Program-made: the position numbers and the translations under genes
In this document: positions 2,566 to 10,088 of the stretch, piece after piece
Position numbering within the stretch: the stretch's first letter is position 1
How the letters are laid out: each line of letters opens with the position of its first letter
Notes under the pieces: generated by a model
The model's input: the letters and a program-made list of their open reading frames with translations, nothing else
The model's database searches: none
Told to the model about the DNA's origin: nothing
NCBI GenBank assembly: GCA_040758525.1
Contig: JBFLVQ010000001.1
Span: 1-53,502, forward strand
Source of the DNA: Acidobacteriota bacterium
Lineage (GTDB): Bacteria > Acidobacteriota > Blastocatellia > Chloracidobacteriales > JADJPF01
Reading direction: 5' to 3'
Length of the DNA stretch: 53,502 bases

Positions 2566-4770
2566 CTATTTAGCCGCTGCTGTTGCGCCTTTGCCGTGGA
2601 TCTCCAATTCCTTCAATAGGTGATTGGCAGCAGCCATCTTCTCAGCTAAAAAGAGCACATATCGTATATCAACACCGATCGTACGCGACTGTTCGGAGTT
2701 ATATACATAGTCGCTACCCAATCCCTCATAATTTCCGTCGAAAACAACTCCAATCAATTCACCATTACCATTAAGAATTGGGCTGCCGGAATTACCACCA
2801 GTAATATCATTGGTAGTAAGAAAAGCTACTGGTACATCATTTACTTTAGTATCCACATAGGAGCCAAACTCTCGTCGTGTAGAGAGATCTTTGAGTACGG
2901 TAGGAACATTGAAAGGCTCTTTACCAGTATCCTTCTCAACCACACCTTGTAGGGTCGTGACATAGCTGTAATAGACGCCATCACGTGGTCGGTAACCTCT
3001 TATCTCTCCATAGGTGAAGCGCAATGTGCTATTGGCGTCAGGATAAAAGAGACCTTTCTTAAATCCGGTCATTGCTTCGATATAGAGTGAGCGAAGTCTA
3101 GCGACACTATTATTGAAATTCTGATCACGCTTGCGTATCTGCTCCAGCTCATTATTGACTTCAGTGACAAAATCTATTGTAGGTGAACTGAGAGTACGCA
3201 TTTGTGTTAGTGGCATATCGAAGAGCTTGTTGATCGTCTCCTCATTCTGTAAGCTACTATCTTCCAGAACTCGTCGAGCAAAATCGGCCACTGCGGTAGC
3301 TCTGGCTGCATCATTACGACCACCAAAACGCTGTTCTAAGAAAGCGACTTTCTGCTCATTCGGCAGTGCTAATAGTTTGTTTAGGTAGAGCTCGATCAAC
3401 TTGCGCTCAAGTGCAGGATTGCGTTCCTTAAATTGACCTGCGAAAGCTCGCTTAATACGCTCTACACGTTCTGCAGAATAGATAGGCGAGCGCTCTGCCT
3501 CAGGCTTCTCTTGATCTAATGCTCGTCCTACTGCAAAGGAGACCGCCCGCAAGGTGTCGGAAGTGTTCATCAGTCCCCCTAGCAGGTTGTTGCGCACATA
3601 GAAAGAATTTTGATCGCGATAGACTTCCGCCAGTTTTGGCAATAACTCACCATATTTCTCTTTAAGATCAGGATGTTGCTCAATATAACGTTGGAAAGCA
3701 ATCTCTTCTGCTCGCTTCTGCTCGATCAGATTCGAGCGCTTCAAACCGACCAATGAACCCTGAAAGTTTTTCAGCGCATTGCTAAGACCAAACTTCTGTG
3801 ACGCATAACGCAGTTGCAAGGCAGTATCTTGGCGTCCTGCTTCATCAAGCAGATTGATGCGTGCTTGCAGCAGATCAATAAAGAAAGGAAGAAATATGTT
3901 CTGTTGAAATTCAATTGAATAGGATTCACGCAGTCGGAAGGTACGGCCAGGGAATCCCATAACCATAGTGAAATCCCCTTCTTTGTAACCTTGTAAGGAG
4001 AGGGTTAGATATTTCTTGGGTCGATAGGGGACATTCTTATCCGAATAGGTGGCGACTTTTCCATCCACACCAACATAGGCACGTAGAAAGGTGAAATCGC
4101 CCGTGTGGCGTGGCCAGATGAAATTGTCATCATCACCACCAAAGAAGCCTATAGACTTAGGAGGCGCATAGACCAGCCGTATATCACGTACAGTCTCAAA
4201 GATGTATAGATGGTATTTAAGGCCAGGCAGCATCTCCACAACATTGTAGCCAAGCTCTGGATTCTTCTGATTAGCTGCCTCCGCAACCTCGCGCCGCTTG
4301 GCCTCAATAGCCTTCTGTCGCTCTTCATAGGTCATCTGTGGCTTCACTGCAGCAAGGATCTCCTGAGTAACATCTTTCACCTCACGAGTGATAGAAACAG
4401 TGTAACCCTTCATTGGCAGCTCTTCACTACGAGACTGTGCAACAAAGCCGTTTTCTAGATAGTTGGCTTGGGGTGTGCTCAACCCTGCAATACCATCGAA
4501 AGCGACATGATGATTGGTGATAATCAGACCTTCCGGAGATACAAATGAGCCAGTGCCACCACCTAAACTCACGATCGCGTCTTTAATACTAAGGCCATCA
4601 GTACGATAGATCTCTTCTGGGGCAAGTTTCAGCCCCTTGGCGCGCATACGTGTGATGGGTAGGGATTTAATATCTTCTGGCAACCACATGCCCTCATCAG
4701 CGGATTGTATTACCGGCAATATGAGCAGAGTCACCAATACCAGTGCGAATGAGAGAAGCTTTTTTTTCAT
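2566..4770 (-). CDS. S46-family dipeptidyl-peptidase (DPP7/DPP11-like), secreted
   Basis: Signal peptide MKKKLLSFALVLVTLLILPVIQSA, followed by the family hallmark DEGMW. Catalytic blocks ITNHHV and GGNSGSP are present. GGAGG lies upstream of the ATG. Confidence 0.9.
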   Translation of the reverse strand: MKKKLLSFALVLVTLLILPVIQSADEGMWLPEDIKSLPITRMRAKGLKLAPEEIYRTDGLSIKDAIVSLGGGTGSFVSPEGLIITNHHVAFDGIAGLSTPQANYLENGFVAQSRSEELPMKGYTVSITREVKDVTQEILAAVKPQMTYEERQKAIEAKRREVAEAANQKNPELGYNVVEMLPGLKYHLYIFETVRDIRLVYAPPKSIGFFGGDDDNFIWPRHTGDFTFLRAYVGVDGKVATYSDKNVPYRPKKYLTLSLQGYKEGDFTMVMGFPGRTFRLRESYSIEFQQNIFLPFFIDLLQARINLLDEAGRQDTALQLRYASQKFGLSNALKNFQGSLVGLKRSNLIEQKRAEEIAFQRYIEQHPDLKEKYGELLPKLAEVYRDQNSFYVRNNLLGGLMNTSDTLRAVSFAVGRALDQEKPEAERSPIYSAERVERIKRAFAGQFKERNPALERKLIELYLNKLLALPNEQKVAFLEQRFGGRNDAARATAVADFARRVLEDSSLQNEETINKLFDMPLTQMRTLSSPTIDFVTEVNNELEQIRKRDQNFNNSVARLRSLYIEAMTGFKKGLFYPDANSTLRFTYGEIRGYRPRDGVYYSYVTTLQGVVEKDTGKEPFNVPTVLKDLSTRREFGSYVDTKVNDVPVAFLTTNDITGGNSGSPILNGNGELIGVVFDGNYEGLGSDYVYNSEQSRTIGVDIRYVLFLAEKMAAANHLLKELEIHGKGATAAAK

Positions 4771-4879
4771 TCTTGTGGTATTCCTCCACGGATTTTACGG
4801 CTTCCCAGGACGAGCCGAGTGCAGATAAGCAACTATAACGAAAAGCTCTTCTCTCATCAAACCCTTAAACCGTGTAAAG

Positions 4880-4904
4880 TGATGGGCGAAAAAACCGCCC
4901 ATCA
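4880..4904 (-). terminator. Hairpin just downstream of the activator gene (9-bp stem, 7-nt loop)
   Basis: tgatgggcg (4880-4888) / cgcccatca (4896-4904), 9 nt past the stop of 4913..6277. The A/T run sits in the loop rather than after the stem, so this is a weak intrinsic-terminator call. Confidence 0.35.
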
Positions 4905-4912
4905 TTACCTGC

Positions 4913-6277
4913 TTAAAGATATTCTGTAAGATTGTGTTTCTTGATCTTGGAATAGAGCCGTGGCCGGTAAATACCTAATATTGCTGCAGCAGCCTGTTTA
5001 TTTCCTTTTGTACGTTGTAAGGTCTGCAAGATTGCCAGTCGCTCTATCTCCTCAAGAGTCATATTGGGTGGGACTATCATCTCCTGGTTACGTGAGGTTG
5101 GCTGTAGGTTAGAAAATGGTAGATCTTCAGCCGAGATCTCTTCACGTTTACATAAGAGCACAGCACGCTCAATCGCATGCTCAAGCTCACGTACATTACC
5201 TGGCCAATGATAAGAGAAGATACGCTCATAAGCATTCTGTGAGAAGCCATGAACATTGCGCTTGTATTTTTCCGAATACATATGCAAGAAATGATCGGCA
5301 AGGTATTGTACATCTTCTGCACGCTCCCGCAAAGGTGGTACCTCAATGGTGATCGTGCTGATACGGTAGTATAGATCTTCTCTGAGTAGGCCATCGCGTA
5401 CGGCATCAGTGGGATCACGATTAGTAGTGGAGATGAGACGAAAATCTACCTCAATCGATTTACCCTCCCCTAGTCGTGTATAGACACGCTCCTGTAGCAC
5501 ACGTAGCAGCTTGGGTTGTAGCTCGACAGGCATTTCAGTAATCTCATCGAGCATTAATGAACCAGTATTGGCTTGTCCTACCAGTCCTTCCGAATCTCTC
5601 GTAGCGCCTGTGTAAGCACCTTTAGTATGACCAAATAGTTCTGCTTCGATGAGTTCCTTAGGTAATGCGGAACAGTTAATTTTCACAAAAGGTTTTTTCG
5701 CACGCAAGCTACTATAGTGAACTGCATTAGCAATTAACTCTTTGCCAGTGCCCGATTCACCCATAATAAGAATGTTGGCATCAGACTTCGCGACTGAATC
5801 GATGATCTCATAAATATCCTGCATGGGTTTACTCTTACCAACAATATTATAGTAAGAGTCTCGCCCTTTGAGACGCTGGCGCAGGTTTTCAGATTCAGCA
5901 AGAATACGCCGCCGCTCAAGCGCTTTCTCAACCAGCACCATCAGTCCCTCTGGCTCGAATGGTTTCTCAACAAAATAGAAAGCACCGCTCTTGGTCGCCT
6001 CTACAGCCTTGTCGATCGATCCATAACCAGTAATTATAATCACTTCTGTAGTAGGCGATTGTTGTTTGATCTGGCGTAACACACTCAGCCCTTCTTGGTC
6101 TGGTAACTGCAGATCAACTAACACCAAGGCATAGCTATCCTGCTCGTAGAGCCTAAGACCTTCCTTACCAGTAGCGGCTGTACGTACTATATAACCGCTG
6201 TCGCCCAAAATCAGTTTTAGACCATCAGTAACAGTGGAGTCATCATCAACTACTAGGACTTTTGGTTTCTCTCTCAC
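4913..6277 (-). CDS. Sigma-54-dependent response regulator (NtrC-family enhancer-binding protein)
   Basis: REC domain (KVLVVDDD, LVLVDLQLPD). AAA+ Walker A GESGTGKE, sigma-54 contact loop GAYTGA (GAFTGA variant) and Walker B LMLDEI. C-terminal Fis-type HTH GNKQAAAAILGIYRPRLYSKIKK. Confidence 0.93.
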   Translation of the reverse strand: MREKPKVLVVDDDSTVTDGLKLILGDSGYIVRTAATGKEGLRLYEQDSYALVLVDLQLPDQEGLSVLRQIKQQSPTTEVIIITGYGSIDKAVEATKSGAFYFVEKPFEPEGLMVLVEKALERRRILAESENLRQRLKGRDSYYNIVGKSKPMQDIYEIIDSVAKSDANILIMGESGTGKELIANAVHYSSLRAKKPFVKINCSALPKELIEAELFGHTKGAYTGATRDSEGLVGQANTGSLMLDEITEMPVELQPKLLRVLQERVYTRLGEGKSIEVDFRLISTTNRDPTDAVRDGLLREDLYYRISTITIEVPPLRERAEDVQYLADHFLHMYSEKYKRNVHGFSQNAYERIFSYHWPGNVRELEHAIERAVLLCKREEISAEDLPFSNLQPTSRNQEMIVPPNMTLEEIERLAILQTLQRTKGNKQAAAAILGIYRPRLYSKIKKHNLTEYL

Positions 6278-6765
6278 GAGTTACTACTCCCAAATCGAAT
6301 GTTATTGGCCTCTTTTGTTAATTGGTCAAGGCTGTCTATTATCTTACCTATCACTTCAAGCAGTTCTGGCTGTTCGCCTAGTTTACGCTTGAGAAAGGTA
6401 GCATAAAGCTTCAAACCACCAATACGATTCTTAATATCATGGCGTAGCCGTGCAGCAACATCTTCCCCAGGTAATATTGGTAGTGATGGTTTGTTGAGTA
6501 GCAACAGGAGTTGCGGCATGCCAACTAGCCCATTAAGACTAAGCAGACTGGCAGACAATGTCTCATTATCAACTGGGAACTCTCTTTGTGCTGTTGGTAG
6601 TCCTGCTGCCAAACTCTCTAAAATCCATTTTGCTAATCCCGGTACGCCAGTATCAATCTCTGTCAGACTACTGCCTGGTTGAGGAGCGTCACTATTAATT
6701 TGACTCCATTCTGGACTGATAGCTAATATACGACCAGTGCTGTCAAGTAGAATGGCTGTCAACAA
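6274..6765 (-). CDS. Mini histidine kinase: PAS-like N-terminus plus DHp/HisKA H-box, no ATPase (CA) domain
   Basis: 163 aa with a TTG start at 6765 preceded by GGAGG and a 5-nt spacer. The H-box RLRHDIKNRIGGLKLYATFLKRKL resembles NtrB-type HEIKNPL. The ORF ends about 40 aa later and overlaps the ATG of the activator by 4 nt (6274-6277), so there is no room for N/G1/G2 boxes. Confidence 0.7.
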   Translation of the reverse strand: MLTAILLDSTGRILAISPEWSQINSDAPQPGSSLTEIDTGVPGLAKWILESLAAGLPTAQREFPVDNETLSASLLSLNGLVGMPQLLLLLNKPSLPILPGEDVAARLRHDIKNRIGGLKLYATFLKRKLGEQPELLEVIGKIIDSLDQLTKEANNIRFGSSNS

Positions 6766-6820
6766 GGCAACCTCCTCTTGTTTCGGCAGTCTGTGCTTTA
6801 TTAAACCCTCGATAAAGTTT

Positions 6821-6837
6821 TGGCAACTGTTATGCCA
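6821..6837 (-). promoter_or_regulatory. Sigma-54 (-24/-12) promoter candidate for the mini-kinase/NtrC-like operon
   Basis: The minus strand reads TGGCATAACAGTTGCCA, i.e. GG-N10-GC with a TTGC -12 element (consensus TGGCAC-N5-TTGC). The -12 GC lies 58 nt upstream of the TTG start at 6765. The 15-nt core is identical to the site at 9359-9373. Confidence 0.6.
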
Positions 6838-6961
6838 ATCTCAGCGTTCTCTCTACAACTATTCCTAAAATAATTGAAAAATATATGCTTAACCTTGCCA
6901 GTCAGGCTCCTTAGGAATCCTTATGAGAGGAAGCTTAAGCTAGCTAATGTCATAAAATCAT

Positions 6962-7004
6962 ACAGTGTCATTAAATAATCTAGTTGGGTATTATGACACA
7001 CTGT
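6962..7004. promoter_or_regulatory. Imperfect palindrome, possible activator (UAS) site upstream of the sigma-54 promoter
   Basis: ACAGTGTCAT (6962-6971) N21 ATGACA(CA)CTGT (6993-7004), plus a further TGTCAT at 6948-6953. It lies 125-170 bp upstream (minus-strand sense) of the -24 element. Confidence 0.25.
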
Positions 7005-7139
7005 CTTAATATAATACATATCTTTCTACGAGGCGTTTATTAGTATCGGATTAGCGCTGTAAGCATCTCAAATCTGACATCTTAGGTTTCCATAGCGAGA
7101 TCAATCAGCTAAAATGACAAAGGTGAAACGGAGGGCCGC

Positions 7140-7511
7140 ATGCATAGACATAAAATATTGGTTGTAGAAGACTTTGAAGACAGCCGTTTCTCGTTATGCA
7201 AGCTTTTGGAGTTGGAAGGATTTGAAGTACTAGAAGCAGTGAATGGCCAACAGGCGGTAACGGTTGCACATAATGCGCAACCAGACTGCATCCTAATGGA
7301 CTTATCACTACCAGTAATGAGCGGTATTGAAGCGACACGTGAGATTCGTCTACTACCCAGATTGCACTCGATCCCGATAATTGCAGTTTCCGCTCATGAT
7401 ACCCAGAATTTCCTCCAGGATGCGCTTGCCTCAGGTTGTAATGATTACATTATCAAACCAGTTGATTTCGACAATCTTCTCAATCTGCTGAAAAAATATT
7501 TTTCTCAATAG
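7140..7511 (+). CDS. Single-domain CheY-like response regulator
   Basis: KILVVEDFED, ILMDLSLPVMSG, AVSAHD and IIKPVDF (acidic pocket, phospho-Asp, T/S and K positions). GGAGGG lies 4 nt before the ATG. Confidence 0.9.
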   Translation: MHRHKILVVEDFEDSRFSLCKLLELEGFEVLEAVNGQQAVTVAHNAQPDCILMDLSLPVMSGIEATREIRLLPRLHSIPIIAVSAHDTQNFLQDALASGCNDYIIKPVDFDNLLNLLKKYFSQ

Positions 7512-7514
7512 CAA

Positions 7515-7586
7515 AATCACAAAGAGCAGACTAAGAACATAGAATATATGTTAGGTATCTATGGTTTTAGTCTGCTCTTTGTGATT
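7515..7586. terminator. 20-bp perfect inverted repeat with 32-nt loop between convergent genes; probable bidirectional terminator
   Basis: aatcacaaagagcagactaa (7515-7534) is the exact reverse complement of ttagtctgctctttgtgatt (7567-7586). It starts 4 nt after the stop of 7140..7511 and ends 20 nt before the stop of 7606..7977. A short U-run (UUUGCU) follows it only on the minus-strand transcript. Confidence 0.5.
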
Positions 7587-7605
7587 AGATCCTTTAGCGC
7601 CGATC

Positions 7606-7977
7606 TTAGCGTACGCGATCAACAATTGCACCTACGACCGCAGTAGCAAGATTGGTCCAGAAGGAGGTGCGGCGGCGTGTAGAGGCGCCCACCAGGTAGC
7701 CTATTGCCACTCCTGAGCCAACTGCAATAGCGAGTGCTTTGCCAGGATTATCCTTAGCATATTCAGTAGCATCACTAGCAAAATGAGAGACACTACGACC
7801 GATTGTTGTGACACCTTGGCCGACTTTCTCGGCACTGCGTGTAAAGGTCTGTCTTGCCTGTCCAAAACGGCCAACACTGGCTGTTTTATCGCCGGCAATA
7901 GTGCCAGTATTAGCAGTATCGGGCTTGTCTGTCTTGTTAGTCTCCGGTTGCGTAATAGGATTAGGATTCTTACTCAT
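7606..7977 (-). CDS. DUF883 (ElaB/YqjD-like) C-tail-anchored membrane protein
   Basis: Start moved to the ATG at 7977 (GGAGG with a 5-nt spacer; protein begins MSKNPNP). The N-terminal part is hydrophilic. The C-terminal anchor is NPGKALAIAVGSGVAIGYLVGASTRRR, as in ElaB/YqjD tails. Confidence 0.55.
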   Translation of the reverse strand: MSKNPNPITQPETNKTDKPDTANTGTIAGDKTASVGRFGQARQTFTRSAEKVGQGVTTIGRSVSHFASDATEYAKDNPGKALAIAVGSGVAIGYLVGASTRRRTSFWTNLATAVVGAIVDRVR

Positions 7978-8004
7978 TAGTTCCTCCTGCAATAAATCAA
8001 AGGA

Positions 8005-8526
8005 TCAATCCGCGACGTTCTGTCGCTGTGCCGGCTCACTGCCGGAGTACCCACCATAGTGTTGCTGCAGTTGCTGATACTCTTCCCATTGACGCTGCAA
8101 CTGTTGCTGATGTTGCTGCTCCTCTTGATATTGTTGGAATCTGTCTAAAACATATTTGCCGGAGAGTGTGAGCAGAGTAGTAAAAATGCTCTGTCGCTTC
8201 GGTTGCAGGGCGGCAATGGTAGACCGGATCAGGCTTTGGAGCAGCTCTTCTGTATTGGAGCGTTTGGGAGCCAAAAACTTGCGAGCGAGATAAAATCCTA
8301 ATAGGGATGCCCCTCCGACTGCTATTAAGGGATATTCACTCAGATAAGCACGCCAGTCAAAAGTCTCTTTCAACTTTTCCCCAAGCAGATCGACAGTATC
8401 AGTAATCTCGTTACGTGTCTGTTCTATATCTTGGCGTATCTTCTCTATACTCTGCTCATGTTCTATGCGCGCTGGTGCATTGGCCGTATTTACGATTGCC
8501 TTGCTGACTCCAGTTGTTTGATCCAT
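8005..8526 (-). CDS. DUF3618-like membrane protein with Gln-rich tail
   Basis: SIEKIRQDIEQTRNEITDTVDLLGEKLKE matches the DUF3618 helix (eIe.TR.eL..TvdaL..Kl). It is followed by one TM (YPLIAVGGASLLGFYLA) and a QQ-rich C-terminus. GGAGG lies upstream, and the gene overlaps the 3' end of 8490..8918 by 37 nt. Confidence 0.5.
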   Translation of the reverse strand: MDQTTGVSKAIVNTANAPARIEHEQSIEKIRQDIEQTRNEITDTVDLLGEKLKETFDWRAYLSEYPLIAVGGASLLGFYLARKFLAPKRSNTEELLQSLIRSTIAALQPKRQSIFTTLLTLSGKYVLDRFQQYQEEQQHQQQLQRQWEEYQQLQQHYGGYSGSEPAQRQNVAD

Positions 8527-8918
8527 CTTTTATCTTCCTCCAAAGTTTCCATGGTCTGCTCCAATTTCAGGTTAACACGCTGCCAGCGCACGCTTCCTGC
8601 CCAAACAGCAAGTAGAGCGCCAACGCCTAAGGCAAGCGCGACGATCGCTGCCGATGCCCATATCGGCAGCCACACTGCCAACAGAAAGATGAGAAAAGTA
8701 GAACTTGCCAAGAATGCGCCCAGACCTAATAGTGCAGCTAAGGCAAAGAATTTGATGCTATCTGCTGATCGGGTAATCTTCTCTTTTGCTTCCTCCTTGG
8801 CAAGCGTAATCTCGGCACGTACGAGCTGGCTTGATTCGTTGGCAAGCCGCCCTAACAGTTCGCCAAAACCAGGCTTCTCCTTCTCTACCTGCTGGTCTTG
8901 TGTCCTGATAGCTTTCAT
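8490..8918 (-). CDS. Holin-X / YqjE-like (phage holin family, DUF1469-type) two-TM membrane protein
   Basis: LVRAEITLAKEEAKEKI followed by two long hydrophobic spans (FFALAALLGLGAFLASSTFLIFLL, IWASAAIVALALGVGALLAVWAG). This is the pattern of the putative Holin-X family. Confidence 0.5.
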   Translation of the reverse strand: MKAIRTQDQQVEKEKPGFGELLGRLANESSQLVRAEITLAKEEAKEKITRSADSIKFFALAALLGLGAFLASSTFLIFLLAVWLPIWASAAIVALALGVGALLAVWAGSVRWQRVNLKLEQTMETLEEDKRWIKQLESARQS

Positions 8919-8924
8919 AACTTG

Positions 8925-9305
8925 TTACCCCTTTTTGCGTAATAACGCGCCAAGTAACAATCCTGTCCCTAGTCCGACTAGCAGACTACGCTCAGGATTG
9001 CGTTTAATGACGCCTCGCAGGTCATTTTGCATTTGTGTGAAGTCGGCTTTCTTCAGATAGCGCGCTGAGTCATTGAGCACGGCAGCGGTGCGCTCGCCTG
9101 CCGCAACCAACCTAGAAGGCTCTTCTTTTCCCTGCTTCATCTCTCCTGCCTTGTTATGAATCATTCCAGCCAATTGTTCGAGTTGGCTCGATATTTGACC
9201 AGTGACCTTGTTGAAGGTGGATGGTTGGTGGGTAGGTTTCAAATTCGTCTCCAATTCGTCTTGTTCTCTAGAATAGTCTCCTGGAATATTTCGTGCTTCA
9301 GACAT
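8925..9305 (-). CDS. DUF883 (ElaB/YqjD-like) C-tail-anchored membrane protein, second copy
   Basis: Start moved to the ATG at 9305 (AGGAGG with a 9-nt spacer; protein begins MSEARNIPG). The C-terminus is RNPERSLLVGLGTGLLLGALLRKKG. The track ORF start at 9401 would run through the promoter. Confidence 0.55.
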   Translation of the reverse strand: MSEARNIPGDYSREQDELETNLKPTHQPSTFNKVTGQISSQLEQLAGMIHNKAGEMKQGKEEPSRLVAAGERTAAVLNDSARYLKKADFTQMQNDLRGVIKRNPERSLLVGLGTGLLLGALLRKKG

Positions 9306-9357
9306 AGACACGCGCCTCCTTAAATTAAAACTGATGGCTGGTTGTTCTGTAATGAAT

Positions 9358-9374
9358 AGGCAACTGTTATGCCG
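9358..9374 (-). promoter_or_regulatory. Sigma-54 (-24/-12) promoter candidate for the DUF883/holin-X/DUF3618 operon
   Basis: The minus strand reads CGGCATAACAGTTGCCT. The GG-N10-GC spacing and TTGC -12 element are the same as at 6821-6837. The -12 GC lies 55 nt upstream of the ATG at 9305. Confidence 0.55.
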
Positions 9375-9578
9375 TATACAAGAGTGATGAATTTCCTGCA
9401 TTTTTCTACAAACTGCGATAACTTAGCACTACCAGAGTGAGTAGTGTGATACCAACTCTTTCCCTGCTGCTACTCAATATAGGTATTGGTCAACCCATCT
9501 AGATAACCGTAACTGACAGTGGCATAAGGATTGTTTTAAGAAAGTAGTAGACAAGAAAAGTAAAAGGGAAATGACGCT

Positions 9579-10088
9579 ATGATTGTCTTTTCATCCACAG
9601 CGCTTGCCGAATATGAACAGTTACGTGCCCGCTATCCAAGCGCACGTGCAGCATTATTGCCAATACTGTGGCTGGCGCAACGCGAGTTCCAAGTGATTAC
9701 ACCTGCTGTGGCCGACTATTTAGGAGCGCTGTTGGGACTCTCGGGCGCCGATGTTTATAGCGTAGCCAGCTTCTACACAATGCTTAATAAGCAGCCTGTG
9801 GGCAGATATCATCTACAAGTCTGCCATAATGTGACCTGCTTCTTGGGTGGCTGTGAGAGGATATTGGCACACTTGAAAACCCGGCTAGCTGTTACAGAAG
9901 GCAATAGCACGCTAGATGGCAGATTTAGTCTTATTAGTGTGGAATGTTTGGGTGCCTGTGATCTTGCCCCAGTAATACAGATCAATGAGCATTATTATGG
10001 CAAGCTCACACCTACTCGAATCGATGAGATCCTCGCTGAACTGGAGAGAGATGAAAAAATACCAACAAGAGACACGGCTGCTGCTTAA
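9579..10088 (+). CDS. nuoE: NADH-quinone oxidoreductase subunit E (24-kDa 2Fe-2S subunit)
   Basis: Thioredoxin-like 2Fe-2S pattern VCHNVTC (C-x4-C) ... ECLGACDLAP (C-x3-C). Typical NuoE N-terminus YPSARAALLPILWLAQ. Confidence 0.85.
   Translation: MIVFSSTALAEYEQLRARYPSARAALLPILWLAQREFQVITPAVADYLGALLGLSGADVYSVASFYTMLNKQPVGRYHLQVCHNVTCFLGGCERILAHLKTRLAVTEGNSTLDGRFSLISVECLGACDLAPVIQINEHYYGKLTPTRIDEILAELERDEKIPTRDTAAA

Follow-up and report, generated by a model that had tools for sequence, protein, structure and literature searches.

Two sigma-54-type promoters with a common 15-nucleotide core beside an NtrC-type activator gene in an acidobacterium

The locus described here raises the question whether two identical promoter-like sites, lying ahead of neighbouring operons and close to the gene for a transcriptional activator, belong to one regulatory circuit. 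The sites were found in a stretch of 53,502 nucleotides (nt) of Acidobacteriota bacterium DNA (the window; NCBI GenBank assembly GCA_040758525.1, contig JBFLVQ010000001.1, positions 1 to 53,502 of the forward strand), which is contig 1 of a metagenome-type assembly of 10.3 Mb, 1250 contigs and 44% GC. Both contain the 15-mer GGCATAACAGTTGCC on the minus strand and are named P1 and P2. P1 precedes an operon for a kinase-like protein and an NtrC-type activator of sigma-54-dependent transcription, and P2 an operon for four small membrane proteins. An earlier note on this DNA had proposed that both sites are sigma-54 promoters of a small regulon, in which the activator regulates its own operon and also drives the membrane-protein operon.

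Two sigma-54-type sites and their genomic setting

An exact search located the 15-mer at 6822–6836 and 9359–9373, both on the minus strand and as the note had reported, and at no other position in the window; with up to two mismatches allowed, no further site appeared there (shuffle expectation 0.11). The consensus against which the sites were compared was TGGCAC-N5-TTGCW, with the GG and GC doublets exactly 10 nt apart.

P1: 6822..6836, minus strand, sigma-54-type -24/-12 promoter tTGGCATAACAGTTGCCa, predicted transcription start site (TSS) near 6811
P2: 9359..9373, minus strand, sigma-54-type -24/-12 promoter cGGCATAACAGTTGCCt, predicted TSS near 9348

Both sites have the GG-N10-GC spacing and the -12 element TTGC around a core that reads GGCAT-AACAG-TTGC; the base preceding GG is T at P1 (TTGGCAT) and C at P2 (cGGCAT). 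They are intergenic and have the orientation of the next gene. The gap to the start codon was 56 nt at P1 (TTG at 6765) and 53 nt at P2 (ATG at 9305), each 2 nt below the 58 and 55 nt given previously, so that the closeness of the sites to the operons stands and the exact distances do not. When the C of GC (6823 and 9360) was set as -12, the start sites proposed before, 6811 and 9348, were reproduced. The leaders would then be 46 nt for P1 and 43 nt for P2, with a ribosome-binding site in front of either start codon (AGGAGG for the TTG at 6765, AAGGAGG for the ATG at 9305). Counted from the end of TTGC, the start codon is 57 nt away at P1 and 48–54 nt at P2, and the genome-wide median is 59 nt (interquartile range 43–81). 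P2 is located 455 nt ahead of the YqjE-like gene of its operon. A sigma-70 scan gave no candidate above shuffle expectation for either operon.

The genome holds the sigma factor that such promoters need: rpoN is present on contig C150, and its 507-amino-acid (aa) product is full length, with region I and the RpoN box visible and a match of 198 bits to the RpoN DNA-binding domain. The absence of this gene, one of several facts that the note had named as undoing its proposal, is thus not what was found. There are 42 activator-type AAA+ matches in the genome, 32 of them with a GAFTGA-type loop. A GAYTGA loop is present in two of the 42, one of which is the activator of the window; the contig of the other carries no intergenic sigma-54 site.

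The pattern GGCAY-N5-TTGC was then counted throughout the assembly, with gene starts and the non-coding fraction taken from crude open reading frame (ORF) calls. It matched 288 times, 129 times in the non-coding part, which makes up about 12% of the genome, and 159 times in coding regions. A co-oriented ORF start lay 15–160 nt downstream of 89 intergenic sites, against 8 for the opposite orientation, only starts with a ribosome-binding site being counted. Because of this bias and the median distance of 59 nt, the intergenic sites were taken to be directional promoter elements. Their flanks carry the expected T ahead of GG and A after GGCAY. Activator genes also tend to have sites of this kind nearby: 11 sites lie within 5 kb of one, about three times the 3.8 expected at random. 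The 53.5-kb window has no intergenic sigma-54 site other than P1 and P2, neither of which is more than 3.1 kb from the sole activator gene of this stretch.

Judged from these features and from the conservation described below, P1 and P2 are very probably both sigma-54 promoters. The best explanation of the locus as a whole, which we consider likely, is that of two genuine RpoN promoters, P1 being autoregulated by the activator and P2 driving a yqjD/yqjE-type operon. The sequence features, statistics, conservation and protein families behind it were computed, while the start sites, binding, autoregulation and stress role are what we infer from them.

The P1 operon and its activator gene

P1 faces a bicistronic operon and shares its intergenic region with a divergent regulator gene.

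Activator: 4913..6277, minus strand, 454-aa NtrC-type sigma-54 enhancer-binding protein with REC, Sigma54_activat, AAA_lid and HTH_8 domains (Pfam)
P1 operon gene 1: 6274..6765, minus strand, 163 aa, PAS-like N-terminal half and HisKA (DHp) H-box
Repeat block, candidate P1 enhancer: 6947..7019, no strand assigned, from the repeat search (families D1, I1 and I4)
CheY-like single-domain response regulator: 7140..7511, plus strand, Response_reg E = 5.9e-28, divergent from the P1 operon

The activator matched PF00072, PF00158 (223.6 bits), PF25601 and PF02954, and its sequence contains ...GHTKGAYTGAT..., in agreement with the GAYTGA-loop activator that had been placed at 4913–6277. GAYTGA is a natural functional variant of the loop, found in HrpS and in activators of Clostridiales (PMC3105312, PMC6615313). 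No NCBIfam equivalog cut-off was reached by the protein; the top scores were those of AtoC, a PEP-CTERM regulator and NtrC. The 163-aa protein encoded ahead of it matched HisKA with E = 8.9e-5, under the gathering score, and had no HATPase_c domain in Pfam; the stop of its gene overlaps the start codon of the activator gene.

The closest activator homologs are encoded on the metagenome contig L073 (70% identity, the best value of the metagenome scan) and in genome G023 (locus L022, 67%); the GTDB relatives are all outside the same genus. In both loci a short kinase-like gene (188 aa in L022, 183 aa in L073) stands directly ahead of the activator gene, and a sigma-54-type site precedes the operon. 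In L022 this is GGCACACAGGTTGCC, ahead of a three-gene operon for a peptidoglycan-binding protein, the mini-kinase and the activator. In L073, TGGCATAGCAAGTGCT occurs twice ahead of the mini-kinase/activator operon, once in each copy of a tandem 59-bp duplication (5225–5340). A good sigma-70-like sequence, TTGTGC-N17-TATAAT, was also seen in L073, farther downstream. Six more distant orthologous loci (62–65% identity) had no sigma-54 site within 13 kb, and conservation of the P1 type is thus confined to the two closest loci. These two have, in addition, a second sigma-54 promoter beside the activator gene, which points to BON and CBS genes in L073 and to the gene of an uncharacterised 138-aa protein in L022.

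In six other genomes the kinase orthologs are longer, about 220–325 aa, or the gene spacing allows such a length. This leaves room for an ATPase (CA) domain, which seems to have been lost in one subclade, formed by the window, G023 and L073, as judged by length and spacing from a comparison with L023, L025, L026 and L028. The CheY-like regulator is found divergently beside the kinase/activator pair in seven related genomes and in metagenome contigs, and was retained in almost all orthologous kinase/activator loci.

The intergenic region between P1 and the divergent regulator gene contains the repeat block at 6947–7019, which consists of three direct 18-nt repeats starting with TGTCAT or TGTCTT and one inverted repeat, TTATGACA, and which sits 111–183 nt upstream of the -24 GG of P1. 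From its position and repeats, the block is put forward as a candidate enhancer of P1. The helix-turn-helix (HTH) helices of the activators of the window, L022 and L073 are almost identical, and no motif common to the three upstream regions was found. A search of Rfam over 4700–9800 returned nothing real.

The autoregulation proposed earlier is plausible at P1, given the activator gene directly downstream and the sigma-54-type sites in the two closest loci; the second target that the note had assigned to the activator did not fare as well and is taken up below. In the mechanism that we propose, RpoN holoenzyme would form closed complexes at P1 and P2, and P1 would transcribe the bicistronic operon for the DHp-only kinase-like protein and the NtrC-type activator. 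The phosphorylated activator would bind the TGTCAT block about 110–180 nt upstream, oligomerise and remodel the P1 complex via its GAYTGA loop. The positive feedback that would follow, gated by phosphorylation of the receiver domain, would raise the level of both proteins. For the DHp-only protein, which has no ATPase domain, the role of a kinase is less likely than that of a phosphatase, a phosphotransfer partner or a connector. The divergent CheY-like regulator would belong to the same signalling module, possibly as a phosphate sink. P2, controlled either by this activator or by one encoded at an unlinked place, would yield two DUF883-like tail-anchored proteins, one YqjE-family protein and one DUF3618 protein, all four of them small membrane proteins.

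The arrangement at P1 resembles those of NtrB-NtrC, ZraSR, AtoSC and GlrKR in that an activator with REC, AAA+ and Fis-type HTH domains follows a kinase-like gene, and in that a -24/-12 promoter is accompanied by repeats about 110–180 nt upstream. It differs from them in that no equivalog cut-off is reached, the partner is DHp-only without an ATPase domain, an extra conserved divergent response regulator is present, and the loop reads GAYTGA and not GAFTGA. The design is otherwise the ordinary one of textbooks, in which a sigma-54 two-component operon regulates itself and a target operon lies next to it. Less usual are the DHp-only partner and the YqjD/YqjE-type module, which in the sampled Blastocatellia consistently stands behind sigma-54.

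The P2 operon and its relatives

The four genes behind P2 run on the minus strand towards the convergent response-regulator gene.

P2 operon gene 1: 8925..9305, minus strand, 126-aa C-tail-anchored, DUF883-like protein (...RNPERSLLVGLGTGLLLGALLRKKG)
P2 operon gene 2: 8490..8918, minus strand, YqjE-family inner-membrane protein, PF07332 ('Phage_holin_3_6'), 87.5 bits
P2 operon gene 3: 8005..8526, minus strand, DUF3618, PF12277 at 32.4 bits, over the cut-off, with a 37-nt overlap with gene 2
P2 operon gene 4: 7606..7977, minus strand, tail-anchored DUF883_C-like protein, E = 9.1e-5, 22.5 bits, below the cut-off of 27
Perfect long hairpin: 7515..7586, no strand assigned, between the convergent P2 operon and response-regulator gene (from the sequence)

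The site ahead of this cluster was compared with those of relatives. We collected 80 loci that encode relatives of the YqjE-like protein, among them 12 Acidobacteriota loci with the gene order of the window. In ten of these 12, TGGCAY-N5-TTGCW was found 429–496 nt ahead of the YqjE-like gene, and an eleventh, L172, carries the variant TGGCGCGCGCTTTGCA (TGGCGC). The clusters of G023 and G027 have a sigma-54 site ahead of their first gene as well, and L183 and G035 have none ahead of theirs. Counting the L172 variant, 13 of the 15 related clusters of these four genes are preceded by a sigma-54 site. No such site was seen at that distance in the loci without the four-gene synteny, including all Streptomyces loci; to our knowledge, actinomycetes lack sigma-54. 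The spacer is different in every relative, so that the conserved part is the sigma-54 consensus and not the AACAG of the window.

Ten of the relatives, of Blastocatellia type (L154, L155, L157, L158, L166, L174, L175, L179, L193 and L222), have in common an element of about 40 nt, AGACAC-N2-3-TGCACGGTAAGGGGACA, located 103–205 nt upstream of the sigma-54 site and holding three GACA/GCAC-like repeats at a spacing of about one turn of the helix. It probably is the enhancer of the DUF883/YqjE/DUF3618 operon in those ten genomes, to judge by its repeats and position. A weight matrix of this element found no match upstream of P1, upstream of P2 or in the G023 and G027 loci, and the matches in the genome of the window were weak and almost all in coding sequence. 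The absence of the element here implies that the regulatory input of the cluster has changed in this lineage; this leaves room for the neighbouring activator without demonstrating its involvement.

The family assignments given to the cluster by the earlier note were correct for the holin-X and DUF3618 genes; DUF883_C was below threshold at 7606–7977, and the first gene (8925–9305) had no match in Pfam or NCBIfam. Gene 1 can nevertheless be aligned to its positional homologs and to E. coli YqjD over the tail anchor ...NP....G...G...RR, where the N, the P and two G do not vary; DUF883_C is matched by three of the 12 proteins in the alignment. A homolog of gene 4 occupies the same position in relatives. 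Neither gene 1 nor gene 4 matched the N-terminal DUF883 domain. PF07332 bears the name of a 'putative holin', but E. coli YqjE itself matches it, at 75.8 bits, and the 'holin-X' label was therefore replaced by the YqjE family; as gene 1 also shares the anchor of YqjD, the cluster was classed as yqjD/yqjE-like. Pairwise similarity of gene 2 to E. coli YqjE was not detectable by BLASTP.

In E. coli, YqjD, ElaB and YgaM are C-tail-anchored, RpoS-controlled ribosome-inactivating proteins, and yqjE-like and yqjK-like neighbours are conserved across the DUF883 family (bioRxiv 10.1101/2024.08.16.608256). The P2 operon is like yqjC-yqjD-yqjE-yqjK in that a tail-anchored, DUF883-like protein is directly followed by a PF07332 membrane protein in one operon, with overlapping genes for small membrane proteins and a presumed stress or stationary-phase context. 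The two differ in control, which depends on RpoS there, while a sigma-54-type promoter stands ahead of the operon here, and in content: DUF3618 takes the place of YqjK, and a second DUF883_C-like gene stands at the end. No gene of the cluster matches PF13997 (YqjK), whereas E. coli YqjK does. As best explanation, the P2 operon would correspond to the stationary-phase yqjD-yqjE operon of E. coli and would be ancestrally sigma-54-dependent in Blastocatellia; by analogy, it may function in starvation or stationary phase. The ndi (nutrient-deprivation-induced) locus of Sinorhizobium meliloti responds to a lack of oxygen, carbon or nitrogen (PMC4237140). Its regulation involves TspO and FixL rather than a recognised sigma-54 promoter, and a tblastn search of plasmid records gave no match that would link it to the present cluster.

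The locus provides a well-supported example of sigma-54 acting over membrane proteins of stress or dormancy type in Acidobacteria, a phylum that is abundant in soil and has been little studied. No publication joining 'DUF883' with 'sigma-54' was found in the library searched.

The hairpin at 7515–7586 is a probable bidirectional terminator that would end the P2 operon; its sole match in Rfam, to a microRNA hairpin, was sub-threshold and spurious. A horizontal-transfer signal was considered for the cluster and discarded, the GC content of 48–49% not being distinctive beside the 45–47% of the flanks.

The shared core and the question of a common activator

The earlier note had laid weight on the exact identity of the two 15-nt cores. 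Eight of the 15 positions are already dictated by the search pattern. The 128 intergenic sites compared yield five identical 15-nt pairs, four of them among the 8105 unlinked pairs, and the flanks and downstream genes of those four are unrelated. A position-frequency model of the 89 best-placed sites predicted 1.3 identical pairs, and three were seen. With four unlinked pairs in the genome equally identical, the weight given to the identity of P1 and P2 was overstated. Among the 23 pairs less than 6 kb apart, P1/P2 is the sole identical one, and about 0.011 such pairs were expected; apart from it, neighbours resemble each other no more than pairs drawn at random do. Overall, the identity of P1 and P2 is mildly significant and not compelling, and is no proof of a shared mechanism. 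As for the identical spacer, coincidence among the roughly 130 promoters of the regulon, or mild selection, is the preferred reading. A more general caution follows for genomes of this kind: with more than 100 sigma-54 promoters, identical 15-nt cores arise by chance several times and are, alone, no evidence of co-regulation.

Several points weigh against the explanation of the locus as two RpoN promoters with an autoregulated P1 and a merely coincidental core. The expectation of about 0.011 makes pure coincidence uncomfortable, and the two sites may have a functional or historical link. P2 has C rather than T ahead of GG. At -11, for which the textbook consensus gives A or T, C is found in P1 and P2 alike, as it is in 28% of the candidate sites of this genome. 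The TGTCAT block could serve the divergent response-regulator gene instead of P1, and the kinase-like protein, having no ATPase domain, does not readily account for phosphorylation of the activator. The idea that a GAYTGA loop specifically requires C at -11 was dropped, in view of that same 28% and of the lack of intergenic sites on the contig of the other GAYTGA activator.

The alternative closest to the earlier proposal makes P1 and P2 a single small regulon under the neighbouring GAYTGA activator, their common core having been selected for equal threshold and strength, possibly with one enhancer block for both; we consider this rather unlikely. The setting speaks for it, P1 and P2 being the sole intergenic sigma-54 sites of the window, within 3.1 kb of its only activator gene, and an identical neighbouring pair being expected only about 0.011 times. 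Both closest homologous loci (L073 and L022) likewise have a second sigma-54 promoter beside the activator gene, and in G023 a sigma-54-driven CBS gene is the back-to-back neighbour of the cluster, an indirect link between activator, CBS gene and cluster. The upstream regions, however, share nothing significant beyond the 15-mer. An enhancer common to P1 and P2 was sought by k-mer sharing with shuffles and by an all-against-all short BLAST of eight upstream regions, and nothing over chance emerged; word enrichment across the 129 upstream regions of the genome yielded AT-rich words only, and repeat finding detected no equivalent of the TGTCAT-type block upstream of P2. Comparison with relatives does not favour one regulon either: the activator ortholog and the cluster occur together in one of 40 relatives, and there on different contigs; not one of the 12 Acidobacteriota loci with conserved gene order carries a convincing activator gene 6 kb or less from the cluster; the spacer is kept in no relative; and ten relatives have their own upstream element, which this genome lacks. 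The four equally identical unlinked pairs count against it as well.

The claim that the neighbouring activator also drives the DUF883/YqjE/DUF3618 operon is therefore not supported, as no enhancer shared beyond chance was found and relatives showed no linkage. Whether P1 and P2 answer to the same activator is a close question, on which we lean slightly towards the negative. Tentatively, and with the same reserve, the neighbouring activator can be named the leading candidate for P2. A bolder view is that sigma-54 took over the RpoS-type stationary-phase control of the ribosome-silencing membrane module of YqjD/YqjE type in Blastocatellia and that the module was rewired, in the present genome, to the neighbouring activator. 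We regard this as improbable. If it were true, the ancestral enhancer would have been replaced and the identical core would be a trace of the rewiring, with one enhancer block of about 2.4 kb reach giving matched output from both promoters under an activator that is partnered by a DHp-only kinase.

A genome-wide exact search revealed a third copy of GGCATAACAGTTGCC, on contig C2 (20293–20307, minus strand; positions 1501–1515 of locus L004). It spans the stop codon of rpmA (L27) and ends 13 nt ahead of the GTG of obg, and with its flanks it can form a 6-bp stem (CAGGCA/TGCCTG). A conserved obg promoter was rejected as its identity, no sigma-54-like motif being present at the rpmA/obg junction in 29 relatives. 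By our estimates, about 0.016 copies of a random 15-mer are expected, and the 159 coding-region matches to the loose GGCAY-N5-TTGC pattern put the probability of such a copy at a few per cent. The copy at this junction is probably due to chance.

Two further readings take the third copy as meaningful. The first makes all three copies one sigma-54 regulon that joins the YqjD-type ribosome-silencing proteins to the ribosome-associated GTPase Obg. Obg acts on ribosomes, and the copy is only 13 nt ahead of its start codon. DUF883 proteins act on ribosomes too (bioRxiv 10.1101/2024.08.16.608256). A TSS 11–12 nt after the GC, however, would leave a leader of about 2 nt and no room for a ribosome-binding site. 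The stop codon of rpmA falls within the copy, and with 0 of 29 relatives showing a sigma-54-like motif ahead of obg and a chance of a few per cent, by our estimate, for a copy of this spacer among the 159 coding-region matches, we find this regulon very improbable. The second reading sees no promoter in the 15-mer; its three copies would be operators for some other DNA-binding protein, with the small palindrome GGCA-N7-TGCC, or would form an RNA hairpin. The ends of the 15-mer are indeed self-complementary, 6-bp stems can be drawn at P1 (TTGGCA/TGCCAA) and at the C2 copy, and three exact copies in 10.3 Mb compare with our calculated expectation of about 0.016 for a random 15-mer. The end palindrome is, however, inherent in the sigma-54 consensus. 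Sites of this motif class have a marked orientation towards genes (89 against 8), and the relatives keep GG-N10-GC with a variable spacer, which fits sigma-54 and not a sequence-specific operator. The missing motif at the rpmA/obg junction of 29 relatives likewise speaks against this reading, and an operator or hairpin is scarcely credible.

Some minor observations were made on the wider set of candidate sites. AT-rich words such as ATTTTTCAATT occur about 45 nt upstream of some 20 of the 129 sites, for instance at 6872–6886 in the window, and words of this type were the only ones enriched across the 129 upstream regions. A DNA-bending or IHF-like function is conceivable for them, as is a mere effect of the low complexity of AT-rich intergenic DNA. 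The N-terminal sequences encoded by genes downstream of candidate sites resemble Hsp20, universal-stress and CBS-pair proteins, the last also by tblastn; such stress-type genes stand behind sites on contigs C89, C244, C578, C750, C154, C360, C115 and C560. As far as sequence resemblance can tell, this acidobacterium may have a large sigma-54 regulon devoted to stress or dormancy. Divergent from P2, finally, TGGCATAAGGATTGTT lies at 9520–9535 on the plus strand, 43 nt ahead of the ATG of nuoE (9579). Its -24 half is good, but GT replaces the near-invariant GC at -12, and it may be a weak or decayed sigma-54 site of the orphan nuoEF pair.

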